DNA of 64,000 nt from Chitinivibrionales bacterium (lineage in GTDB: Bacteria > Fibrobacterota > Chitinivibrionia > Chitinivibrionales > WJKA01), in contig JBBRUX010000022.1 in the NCBI GenBank assembly GCA_038247415.1, forward strand, positions 1 through 64,000, given 5' to 3'. Position numbers: made by a program. Positions 57,601-60,600 of the stretch are shown here, in pieces. The number at the start of each line of letters is the position of its first letter. The first letter of the stretch is position 1.

Positions 57601-60600
57601 TCAATTAAATTCTGGACATCCTGTCGCGTGAGCAGGTCGTGTCCGTGCCGTTTTATAATTTCGGTAAGATGCGTAGCCAGAACAGCAGGCAGCTCTACAA
57701 CCGTATAACCCGCAATTTCTGCTGCTTCTTTTTGGCTTTCTGTAATCCAGAGCGCAGGCAGACCAAAGGCTGGTTCAACCGTTTCGATACCCCGCACCTT
57801 GCGCGTTGTTGTACCTGGATCCATTGCCAGATACGATCCACTCATAAGCTCACCTTTACCAACAGGTATTGTTCGTATTTTAACCCGATACTCATTTGGT
57901 TTAAGTTGAATATTGTCACGTATCCTTATGGGGGGAATAATTATTCCCATTTCGGTGGCAAGCTGCCGACGTATCATCGTGATCCGATCGAGAAGATCCC
58001 CACCTTGATTTTTATCTACAAGCGAAATGAGCCCATACCCGATTTCAAGTTCCATAGAATCGACATGTAAATAATCTTCTACTCTTTCTTCGGCTGGCTT
58101 GGGAGCATTTAATGGTTCTTCCAATTTTAGCTTCTCTTTTTTCTCGCGCACCGTGCCAAGATATGCTGCCCCAAGAATAGAAGCTCCTAAGAGAAGAAAT
58201 GCAATTTTTGGAAATCCAGGAACTGCAGCAAAAAGAACCATAATACTACCTGCTACGGCAAGCACTCGAGGATTTTTTAGCAATTGTCCACTAATTTCGC
58301 TCCCAAGATTATTGCGCGATGCTGCACGACTTACTAAAATACCAGCACCGGTAGAAATCATGAGTGCTGGAATTTGTGTAATAAGACCATCGCCAATAGT
58401 TAAAGTTGTGTAGAGGTGTAGGGCTTCCATCCAATCGCGCCCTTGCATTGCAACACCTATCACAAAGCCGCCAATAACATTTATTACAAGAATGATAATA
58501 CCGGCAACAGCATCACCACGCACAAACTTGGAAGCTCCATCCATTGCTCCATAAAAATCTGCTTCTTGCGATATTTTAGCGCGACGCGTACGAGCTTGCT
58601 CTTCGGTAATAAGACCAGAATTAAGATCGGCATCGATTGCCATTTGTTTACCAGGCATGGCATCCAAGGTAAAGCGTGCCGCAACTTCTGCAATACGAGT
58701 TGCACCTTTCGTGATAACAATAAACTGGATGAGCACAATGATAATGAATATTATGAAACCAACAATAGGGTTTCCAGCGGTAACAAAATTACCAAATGCA
58801 AAAACAACCGCACCAGCATCACCTTGAGTTAATATAAGCCGCGTTGTTGCCACATTGAGCGACAACCTAAATAACGTGACCACAAGCAATAACGATGGGA
58901 AAACCGAAAAATCGAGCGGTTCATTGTTATACATAGTTGACAAAAAGATAATAAGTGCCAAGGCCAAATTAAAAGAGAGCATAATATCCATGAGAAACGT
59001 AGGCATAGGAACAACCATGACCACAATAATAGAAACCACCCCCAGCACAATAATAAGATCGCGCTGGCGCGAAAGTGCCGAAAAGAAAGGATTCTGGAGT
59101 GTGGAGGTGATCGAATTAGTGATATTCATGGTATGCTTCTATTGTACCGTAATAATAATTTTTTTGCGAATCGATTTTCTGTTTCGTTTATCAGCAGCAG
59201 ATACATAAATAGTGTCAAGCGATGCTGAGTCTGGTGACACATAGGTTAACCGCGAAGTCATCGATAGGCTCTTTGAACGCATTATCCACGAATATGCAAT
59301 GGTATCTCCAAATTTAGTATCGGAATCGGTTGCATACCCTTGAAAAAATATAGTATCTAAGACAGGATTTTGTATCCGATAGAGCGTATCGGCGCCACGA
59401 AACACCGAATCGAGAAGTATGCCTTTAACACGGATACTATCAATCACCGGAGGAATAATAGGATTTCCGTGCACCACTTCTATTTGACGAACAGCACTAT
59501 CTCCCTTGGCATCACGAACCGTTATACGCAGTGTGTCGATTATAGCCAATGAATCAATAAGTGTAGTATGGGTTGTGGATGTATAATAGCGTACTTTTCC
59601 GGCGGTATCTGCCGTAAAATTGAGGGGTTTCTTTACTTTATACGCAAACGTAATAATTTGGGCTTCGGGGTCCGATGCATAGACTCTCATTTTAATGGTA
59701 TCCAGAGCCATGCGTTGATATCGCAAGAGTAGAGATGACGACTTGAACGTCGTATCGCCGCATACGATACTATCAAATACCGGTGGAAGATTGGCAGCAC
59801 CACGGTGCATAATCAGCGCCCGGGTATCATTTCCACCATTGGCATCCATAACTTTACAAAAAATTGTATCGGTAAAGACTCCGCTCAGGGGAGGAGTGTA
59901 CGTAATTGCCCAGGGGTTAGAGGGCACATCAATTACCAGTTTGGCCGAAGCAGAATTCCATAGTATATTGAGAACCTTATCGTTGACATCTGTGGCAAGT
60001 ACGCGAATAGCGATACTTTTAGCGGTATCAACTTCATATACTAAAGGCGCGGTGCGTGCTGTAATCACCTTTGTGCCAATTGTCACCGTTTTAATTTCGG
60101 GAGCAATATTTCTCACAGTAATCTTTACGCTATTAGAACGCAACCGACCACCCCCAACCGATACATACACCGAATCGAAAAATGATGTATCTCCGCTTAT
60201 TATTCTGTGTGTTGGAAATGCACTCCAATACAACCGATATACTGCATGGGTAACCTGCGAGCCAGGACGCATTGAATCGGGAGGTAGTACAAAAGCACTT
60301 CCTAAATGCCAACCAATTGCAGAATCGACAACAGCTTCCGGAAGCGTTACAATAGCTTCTATTGGGTACCCCGAATAAATAGCATCGATTCTCCCATCAA
60401 TTTCAAGCGCTAACGTTATAGTCATAGACGCATCAACGCCAGAGGGTTTAGTTACGCACGTTACGAGCGTACATGCAAAAAATCCGGCTAAGCACAATGC
60501 TACTTTAAATGTGCGACGAGGTAGTACCATAGTGTGAATTCCTATCATGCTGCACGTTTTAATCTGAAAACATATGCAAGGATCTCTGCAACTGCATTAA

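Follow-up and report, generated by a model that had tools for sequence, protein, structure and literature searches.

The flagellar export operon of a Chitinivibrionales bacterium (assembly GCA_038247415.1) contains an additional reading frame, here called X, between flhB and flhA, and the question is whether its product belongs to the flagellum and what it might do there. The window analyzed was the first 64,000 nt of contig JBBRUX010000022.1. Lineage-specific additions to the motor are a main source of flagellar diversity, accessories tied to the type III export gate are very few (the known ones are FlhE and FliO), and we know of no structural study of flagella from this group. As judged from its sequences, X is an undescribed envelope protein family that spans the whole phylum and is linked to FlhB by gene fusion. 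In the literature on the flhB/flhA neighborhood, on Chitinivibrio flagella and on FlhB fusions and lipoproteins, neither gene X nor the fusion was found described.

Position of X in the operon

X was read on the reverse strand as an open frame of 469 amino acids (59139–60548), or of 463 amino acids if started at the ATG at 60530, which has an AGGA motif 9 nt upstream. The other possible start, the ATG at 60548, overlaps the flhB stop codon (ATGA). Placement between flhB and flhA, as given in the first-pass annotation, was confirmed by this reading and by the Pfam matches of both neighbors. The features are collected in Table 1, in which flhF, flhG and fliA are the names that we assumed for the downstream genes from domain content and position. 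Between 53500 and 64000, neither terminator-like sites (11, versus 9.8 in shuffled sequences) nor promoter-like sites (32, versus 23.5) were in excess, and on the reverse strand within X the number of terminator-like sites was zero.

Table 1. Features of the X locus, with the genes upstream and downstream
Feature	Positions	Strand	Basis or remark
Gene X, 463 aa + stop	59139..60530	-	ORF reading
Signal peptide, residues 1-25	60456..60530	-	n-region MVLPRRTFK, then hydrophobic helix; modelled helix 5-25
N-terminal Ig-like domain, family-specific, residues 36-141	60108..60425	-	model and alignments; best-conserved part
Ig domain 1, Big_9 type, residues 145-245	59796..60098	-	Big_9, 31 bits; alignable phylum-wide together with the N-terminal domain
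Ig domain 2, residues 250-356	59463..59783	-	model; opens with PPVFDS
Ig domain 3, residues 361-463	59142..59450	-	model; opens with PPVIDS
flhB, export-gate switch protein	60545..61606	-	Pfam Bac_export_2, 429.5 bits; immediately upstream of X
flhA	57033..59129	-	Pfam FHIPEP, 903 bits; starts 9 nt past the X stop
fliO	63505-63861	-	Pfam FliO (PF04347); upstream, same direction as X
fliP	62696-63508	-	Pfam FliP; upstream, same direction as X
fliQ	62403-62672	-	Pfam Bac_export_3; upstream, same direction as X
fliR	61616-62401	-	Pfam Bac_export_1; upstream, same direction as X
SRP54-type GTPase (flhF-like)	55804-57036	-	domain content; downstream
MinD/ParA-type ATPase (flhG-like)	54920-55807	-	domain content; downstream
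Membrane ORF, 122 aa	54555-54923	-	ORF; downstream
Sigma-70-family factor (fliA-like)	53756-54520	-	domain content; downstream

Domain structure of X

In an AlphaFold2 model built from 42 sequences (mean pLDDT 89.4), the helix of residues 5–25 is followed by four all-beta, Ig-like beta-sandwiches, which bears out the four domains predicted earlier from 5 sequences at a mean pLDDT of 65.5. The statement that no Pfam family exceeded its cut-off did not hold, as Big_9 (PF17963) matches residues 165–238 of the 463-amino-acid protein at 31 bits, against a gathering cut-off of 23.6 bits; this family is matched by 14 of the 42 family members. X had zero matches to Pfam flagellar families at E ≤ 1. 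Of the two repeated motifs originally reported, PPVxDS is present in exact form at residues 249 and 360, with a degenerate copy, APEIKT, at 143, whereas exact Dx(D/N)xD is absent from X, the nearest sequences being DVND at 181 and DSD at 402.

Five residues (W102, D119, S132, N141 and D181) are invariant in alignment A2, which covers the N-terminal module phylum-wide in 30 sequences, and the first four of these lie in the N-terminal domain. That domain matched Pfam below E 0.01 in 0 of 30 members and had no relative among PDB sequences (best E 0.74). Structure comparisons returned generic Ig folds, with a best E of 7.8e-3 in Foldseek and Z of 8 or less in VIA-align (7.5–8.0 to BcpA pilin, invasin and intimin). 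When all of X was compared using Foldseek, E values reached 8e-12 to 6xi1 and cadherins, at a whole-chain TM-score of only 0.2–0.3, and matches in the protein atlas were to generic Big_9/PKD clusters only.

Distribution and divergence across the phylum

A search of 41 genomes of the order, the source genome among them, found X in 19, including 6 of 6 of the same family, and by coordinates all 19 copies sit in the flhB–flhA gap; the gene order and the presence in all same-family relatives first noted are upheld. Faster divergence was likewise reproduced: identities to the source proteins were 24–34% for X, 47–62% for FlhB (full-length matches) and 60–73% for FlhA, and in the order-wide comparison X is the fastest-evolving gene of its operon. 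The family is wider than the Chitinivibrionales to which it had been assigned, since a homologous N-terminal module lies beside flhB in other families of the phylum, at 12 loci as a separate gene and at 3 as a fusion. At the 12 loci with a separate gene an NHL-like beta-propeller replaces the Ig repeats after the conserved module. X contains 3 to about 9 repeats, an approximately threefold variation, and within this order the lineage-specific part past the conserved module consists of 2 to about 8 further Ig repeats.

At all 36 X-bearing loci (33 separate, 3 fused), X comes directly after flhB and shares its strand, so that chance does not explain its link to the flagellar export operon. Measured from where the FlhB match ends, the first X start codon lies at −89 to +58 nt, and at no more than 33 nt in 32 of 33 loci. 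X was still found beside flhB where no flhA follows in the available DNA (4 loci of one genus and locus L020). For an outside control, loci of other phyla returned by an FlhB-only locus search were used; flhA followed flhB after 15–239 nt in 18 of 18, and neither an A2 match nor a gene between the two was seen in any (0 of 18). The proteins related to X carried the source names Chitinivibrionales, Fibrobacteres and Fibrobacterota, and searching alignment A2 against longer proteins gave just 4 matches.

X was not found in 29 testable flhB loci; at 17 of these, flhA directly adjoins flhB (gaps of 15–309 nt). In one entire family (8 loci) the two flagellar genes are unlinked and there is no X. 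On a tree calculated from FlhB, 11 changes of X state are required, and the flagellum therefore works without X. Genomes of the order without flhA and flhB matches gave an X match in 0 of 7 (single-protein query), an absence that is partly trivial because loss of the operon removes X as well. One genome encodes a paralogue of X, of 913 amino acids, among non-flagellar genes.

Export signal and anchoring

The first-pass annotation described an invariant lipobox-type Cys24. An invariant cysteine does end the signal, being Cys in 41 of 42 family sequences in the aligned column (the sole exception is N-terminally truncated), but its number is Cys25 (codon 60456–60458, reverse strand) and it is preceded by Thr, which does not make a canonical lipobox; the classical pattern is [LVI][ASTVI][GAS]C. 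Other cysteines of X are at residues 13, 20, 225 and 257, and Cys20 (FFAC) forms an alternative lipobox that is closer to the classical pattern than Cys25. In the family alignment, the conserved Cys is followed by a Pro/Thr/Ser-rich linker.

The residue at position −1 of the aligned Cys is small in just 7 of 41 sequences of this order and is L, V, F, H, R, M, D or N in 34. Of 10 propeller-type homologues from other families, 7 have a small residue ahead of the Cys, and S, A or G stands there in 26 of 26 fused FlhB–X forms, so that lipidation is less certain in this order than in the fused and propeller forms. In a survey of the source genome using a crude, unvalidated heuristic, 46 of 91 lipoprotein-like N-termini had a non-small residue at −1, which suggests that the lipobox may be relaxed in the lineage of X.

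The Thr before Cys25 and the 34 sequences that depart from the classical lipobox would be accommodated if X were no lipoprotein in this order, its helix serving as an uncleaved signal anchor or as a substrate of signal peptidase I and the invariant Cys being otherwise used. We regard this as rather unlikely given a Cys that closes the hydrophobic stretch, with the linker next to it, in 41 of 42 sequences, the small residues at −1 in the other families and the fused forms, and the result, by that same unvalidated heuristic, of the genome survey. This alternative bears on no step but anchoring and fits every function proposed for X. The protein is an exported chain of Ig-like domains, probably with a lipid anchor.

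FlhB–X fusions

In three genomes of one genus, the flhB stop codon is lost and FlhB and X form a single polypeptide, in frames of 909, 899 and 915 amino acids, with Bac_export_2 over residues 4–345 and the A2 profile over approximately 360–615 (E 2e-20 to 6e-14); the genome search separately lists open frames of 902–918 amino acids for the same flhB matches. Database clusters of 899–918 amino acids were fused in 26 of 26 cases, carrying PF01312 and covering 99–100% of the query region. These clusters come from several sources and are 45–100% identical over the junction. All 26 retain NPTH, and their junction runs through a K/R-rich linker and a hydrophobic stretch to the Cys of a canonical lipobox; in some of them Met is absent ahead of the hydrophobic stretch. 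Such a fusion implies a ratio of about one X per FlhB.

A further proposal, which we rate as possible rather than probable, is that the fusion is a natural polyprotein with FlhB as a giant "signal peptide". Signal peptidase II would cut at the internal lipobox, so that FlhB gains a fifth membrane helix at its C-terminus and one X is freed per export gate; present in a single copy in the periplasm, X could help the nascent rod to cross the wall or outer membrane and would be an independently invented analogue of FlhE. The fusion makes this testable, as internal lipobox cleavage and production of X 1:1 with FlhB are predicted, and cleavage, if true, would be an unusual route to a lipoprotein.

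Proposed function

The reading that we favor, and consider moderately probable, is that X is a non-essential periplasmic lipoprotein accessory of flagellar assembly that is co-produced with FlhB, a function that we infer from two flagellar links only, operon position and fusion. X would be translated along with FlhB, across intergenic distances of 0–33 nt or as a fusion, and its hydrophobic segment would insert N-in/C-out, the orientation required after the cytoplasmic C-domain of FlhB. If the Cys is then lipidated and signal peptidase II cleaves ahead of it (as is presumed for the fusion), X would thereby be set free as a periplasmic lipoprotein at the place and time of export-gate synthesis, in a ratio of roughly 1:1. 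The periplasmic loops of FlhB itself are very short. Rather than forming a ring of many copies, X may in the periplasm assist flagellar assembly or passage through the envelope as a low-copy, dispensable helper; a conserved contact would fall to its conserved N-terminal module, and its variable C-terminal part would extend to a variable envelope target. The 29 flhB loci without X, the 913-amino-acid paralogue and the adhesin-like, generic fold matches count against such a helper. A separate candidate role, that X supplies the lipid anchor lacking in FlgH, was rejected: in all 30 relatives, whether or not they have X, the signal peptide of FlgH is ordinary and contains no lipobox Cys, so that the two do not correlate.

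Alternatively, X might be a hitch-hiker without a flagellar role: an adhesin-like protein, or some general envelope protein, whose expression is driven from the flagellar operon (serving, for example, in the attachment of motile cells to insoluble polymers). Its nearest folds are indeed those of tandem-Ig adhesins, cadherins, invasin/intimin and pilins, its repeat number is variable, its divergence fast and its losses frequent, one paralogue lies outside the flagellar genes, and flagellum-linked polymer attachment is discussed for this phylum in an excerpt of PMC4704652. We nevertheless think it unlikely, because a hitch-hiker would not be expected to keep a single position phylum-deep at every X-bearing locus; X also remains by flhB even where no flhA follows, is fused in frame to FlhB and retained so in all 26 diverged clusters, and was not found in the order's genomes lacking flhA and flhB, the last point being partly trivial.

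Less likely still is a multi-copy structural motor part in the periplasm (a ring, collar or strut round the basal body), since, although the gene lies phylum-wide inside the core export operon, the modelled product is an envelope-anchored, rod-like Ig chain and other lineages have gained rings of lipoproteins or beta-sandwich proteins (FlgP and FlgT, for example), the fixed geometry of a ring is hard to reconcile with a length of 3 to about 9 repeats and a C-terminal half replaced elsewhere by a propeller, and X has been lost repeatedly in flagellated lineages and evolves faster than the rest of its operon. The fused lineage, moreover, ties X 1:1 to FlhB, of which each export gate contains a single copy according to an excerpt of PMC12248157. 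Where the first-pass annotation proposed a periplasmic part of the flagellum, the tie to the flagellar operon has become stronger and wider (36 of 36 loci, in-frame fusion), whereas a fixed structural part is doubtful because of the flhB loci without X, the variable repeat number, the swapped C-terminal module and the 1:1 fusion. Species that have X, lack it or carry it fused to FlhB provide a natural comparison set for cryo-tomography.

Comparison with known systems

FlhE is a soluble, single-domain protein of approximately 130 amino acids with a beta-sandwich fold, and flagella form without it. Like X, it is secreted, encoded in the same operon as flhB and flhA, and confined to few lineages (Enterobacterales and relatives); unlike FlhE, X comes after flhB, has a Cys-ended signal and contains four or more domains. 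An excerpt of PMC11247099 describes FlhE as a periplasmic product of the flhBAE operon, which controls the assembly of the rod and is proposed to be a periplasmic chaperone for it, and places its gene after flhA. The FlhE profile (PF06366) was not among the Pfam matches of X at E ≤ 1 and had none genome-wide at E ≤ 0.01, and FlhE was not among the Foldseek and VIA-align matches listed for the N-terminal domain, a result that is still compatible with a fold common to both.

FliO is a bitopic membrane protein. An excerpt of PMC12248157 reports that its periplasmic AMIN domain is needed to sustain FlhB levels in C. jejuni. The AMIN and LysM variants of FliO resemble X in being poorly conserved, diversified gate accessories encoded in the gate operon, but X has no FliO, AMIN or LysM match and an ordinary fliO is already present at 63505–63861.

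In fold and beads-on-a-string build, X resembles tandem Ig, Big_9 and cadherin-like repeat proteins (the RTX adhesin repeats of 6xi1, invasin/intimin). These tandem-Ig adhesins are large surface proteins that leave the cell through type I secretion or as autotransporters, and they are not known to be linked to flagellar genes. Unlike calcium-rigidified cadherin-like repeats, X is without the exact Dx(D/N)xD calcium-site motif, and the fold likeness is generic. FlgP, FlgT and PflA/PflB are envelope proteins, some of them lipoproteins, that were added to the motor in certain lineages and form multi-copy rings of fixed geometry; X, in contrast, is variable in length, repeatedly lost and coupled 1:1 to FlhB. 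In its logic, the role proposed for X parallels that of FlhE or that of the AMIN domain which FliO exposes to the periplasm.

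Gene organization

Counted from the ATG at 60530, with AGGA 9 nt upstream of it, X has 463 aa; the flhB stop shares an ATGA with another candidate start codon, the ATG at 60548, and flhA starts 9 nt past the X stop. GC content of the region was unremarkable, and neither terminator-like nor promoter-like sites exceeded shuffled expectation. The 122-aa membrane ORF downstream has hydrophobic N-terminal stretches and no Pfam family above cut-off.

Positions of the export operon genes and of features at other loci
Feature	Source	Position	Strand	Description
fliO	window	63505-63861	-	farthest upstream of the operon genes listed
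fliP	window	62696-63508	-	after fliO
fliQ	window	62403-62672	-	after fliP
fliR	window	61616-62401	-	after fliQ
flhB	window	60545-61606	-	directly upstream of X
X	window	59139-60530	-	463 aa, between flhB and flhA
flhA	window	57033-59129	-	directly downstream of X
flhF-like	window	55804-57036	-	SRP54-type GTPase, after flhA
flhG-like	window	54920-55807	-	MinD/ParA-type ATPase, after flhF-like gene
122-aa membrane ORF	window	54555-54923	-	between flhG-like and fliA-like genes
fliA-like	window	53756-54520	-	sigma-70-family factor, after 122-aa ORF
flgH	L013	1498-2070	-	L-ring protein
second flhB-flhA pair	G019:C92	1952-5098
extra gene	L017	3179-4870	-	563 aa, between X and flhA
split X	L031	6036-7158	-	f5 genome
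X paralogue	L033	5924-8665	+	913 aa
fused ORF	L078	5620-8349	-	FlhB and X in a single frame
fused ORF	L079	2496-5195	+	FlhB and X in a single frame
fused ORF	L080	6005-8752	-	FlhB and X in a single frame

Sequence and predicted structure of X

The N-terminus reads MVLPRRTFK followed by a hydrophobic stretch, with Cys at residues 13, 20 and 25. Searched against 1.84 billion representative proteins, X had 98 matches with E≤1e-3, of which 35 reached E≤1e-30. Most are 340-900 aa long and share this kind of N-terminal start, the remainder being generic Ig-repeat giants. In the family alignment (A1, n = 42), W102, S132, N133, N141, D221 and D229 were invariant, and Cys occupied the C25 column in 41 of 42 sequences, the sole exception being without its N-terminus; a small residue preceded this Cys in only 7 of the 41. 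In a crude heuristic scan of our own across the window's whole genome, 46 of 91 lipoprotein-like N-termini had a non-small residue before the Cys, a hint that this lineage may have a relaxed lipobox.

The AlphaFold2 model on A1 (mean pLDDT 89.4, pTM 0.61) consisted of a helix (5-25) and beta-sandwich units at about 38-141, 145-243, 251-355 and 362-462. The first-pass annotation had placed X in no Pfam family above cut; Big_9, the sole match, in fact scored 31 bits against a 23.6-bit cut-off, in unit 2, and was matched by 14 of 42 family members. Foldseek neighbours were tandem Ig or cadherin chains (TM-scores 0.2-0.3), led by the 6xi1 RTX adhesin repeats at E 8e-12. The N-terminal unit was the most conserved (mean pairwise identity 33.8% versus 23.6-26.0% in the repeats) and was modelled alone with pLDDT 89.8 (30 sequences); it had no sequence relative in Pfam or PDB, and fold searches gave generic Ig folds only (Foldseek E≥7.8e-3, VIA-align Z≤8). 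Homologues carried from 3 to about 9 repeats, the window's X, with 3, being the shortest complete form seen and a 1043-aa open frame having about 9.

Distribution and synteny

Among 41 genomes of the order, the window's own included, FlhA matched in 34, FlhB in 33 and X alone in 19, and all 19 X matches lay by coordinates inside the flhB-flhA gap (1.4-3.1 kb). The single-protein X query gave no match in the 7 genomes of the order that lack flhA as well as flhB. Identity to the window's proteins was 24-34% for X, 47-62% for FlhB (full-length matches) and 60-73% for FlhA. One genome (G019) also held a divergent flhB and flhA, each 38% identical to the window's and directly adjacent, which may belong to another type III system, flagellar or related. 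The L-ring protein FlgH is a lipoprotein in enterobacteria; in this order its signal peptide was of the ordinary kind and lacked a lipobox Cys in 30 of 30 genomes (L013, L048-L077).

In 201 genomes of the phylum, the A1 profile found X in three f5 genera and in f6, and also matched the first ~200 residues of 541-605-aa ORFs in ten genomes of other families (A1-profile and FlhB tallies at this level include one unpublished genome, G194, and no individual claim depends on it). All ten ORFs directly followed flhB, with flhA then following in nine, in one of which an SBBP beta-propeller repeat protein gene is interposed (L017). X had been put forward as a candidate specific to Chitinivibrionales, which these homologues of its N-module contradict. 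The ORF products had mostly canonical lipoboxes, an X-type N-domain, one Ig domain and a C-terminal NHL-repeat region (NHL score over the Pfam cut-off in 3 of 6 tested, weaker in 2 more). Alignment A2, built from ~250 N-terminal residues of 30 proteins that include both types, kept W102, D119, S132, N141 and D181 invariant; the conserved unit is thus signal, Cys, N-domain and first Ig domain, and the C-terminal part was swapped between lineages.

The window and 66 fetched loci gave 67 flhB loci, chosen partly by matches, so that counts are not prevalences. X came next after flhB in 36 and never on the opposite strand; it is a separate gene in 33 of these and fused in 3. Its start lies between -89 and +58 nt relative to the end of the FlhB match, at or below 33 nt in 32 of 33. 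In the remaining 31, flhB and flhA were adjacent (15-309 nt apart) without X in 17, neither X nor flhA lay in the fetched stretch in 12, and sequence ended too near flhB to tell in 2. Four loci of one f5 genus had X after flhB and no flhA match in the DNA fetched beyond X, one contig ending 1.5 kb past X. Loci of other phyla served as the outside control: in 18 of 18, flhA came 15-239 nt behind flhB and the A2 profile matched nothing. In family f9 neither profile detected X at E≤1; there and in G018 (L034-L045), flhB and flhA have unrelated neighbours on two separate contigs, a break in the export operon exactly at the place X would occupy. In that f5 genus one X copy (L031) is interrupted by an in-frame stop, which leaves ORFs of 205 and 180 aa; this gene may be on its way to being lost. 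The L033 paralogue, with ~7 repeats, lies among non-flagellar genes in a genome that keeps a normal copy at flhB.

On a quick maximum-likelihood FlhB tree (LG+G4, midpoint root, 66 rows; L004 omitted because its FlhB is partial), X presence required 11 changes, at least 7 of them forced by well-supported branches, and X-bearing rows lay on both sides of the root. The simplest reading of this gene tree, which is not a species tree, is ancestral presence with repeated loss.

FlhB-X fusions

FlhB matched in 97 of 201 phylum genomes, in 3 of them, all one genus, inside a 902-918-aa open frame; the fetched loci were single ORFs of 909, 899 and 915 aa. From the N-terminus, each contained Bac_export_2 (residues 4-345, E 1e-108 to 1e-114), which retains NPTH. 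A linker rich in Arg and Lys, a hydrophobic stretch and a lipobox Cys then lead on to the N-domain and Ig domain of X, matched by the A2 profile at E 2e-20, 2.6e-18 and 6e-14, and a propeller-like tail comes last. A search with residues 300-700 of one against 5.8 billion proteins found 26 clusters, 899-918 aa long and of several sources, with the junction region covered 99-100% at 45-100% identity. In 26 of 26, PF01312 and NPTH were present, as were the charged linker, the hydrophobic stretch and a Cys with S/A/G before it; because several lack a Met ahead of that stretch, translation is unlikely to start separately there. Public names of these ~900-aa proteins (P0107-P0132) are plain 'FlhB' and pass over the last ~550 aa with their lipobox, Ig domains and propeller; source names of some clusters are Fibrobacterota or Fibrobacteria bacteria, taxon names being source labels on a few proteins only. 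The C-domain of FlhB is cytoplasmic, and the segment that follows it in the fusion is therefore oriented as a signal peptide. That a canonical lipobox is so strictly conserved suggests that signal peptidase II would cut the fusion.

Interpretation

Because of its position, tight spacing, persistence beside flhB and fusion, X is, on comparative genomic grounds, tied to FlhB far more strongly than by neighbourhood alone. We favour X as a putative low-copy, dispensable periplasmic accessory, in keeping with how often X is lost, its varying length, the exchange of modules and the 1:1 coupling, through fusion, to the single-copy gate protein FlhB. A hitch-hiking adhesin is possible, and the one paralogue outside flagellar genes speaks for it. 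The same losses, length variation, module exchange and 1:1 coupling argue against X as a fixed ring.

For the favoured periplasmic accessory, homology to FlhE or to the AMIN domain of FliO was not found, but these are the nearest analogies: FlhE, a periplasmic product of the flhBAE operon, is proposed to be a chaperone of rod assembly (PMC11247099), and the periplasmic AMIN domain of FliO is required to sustain FlhB levels (PMC12248157).
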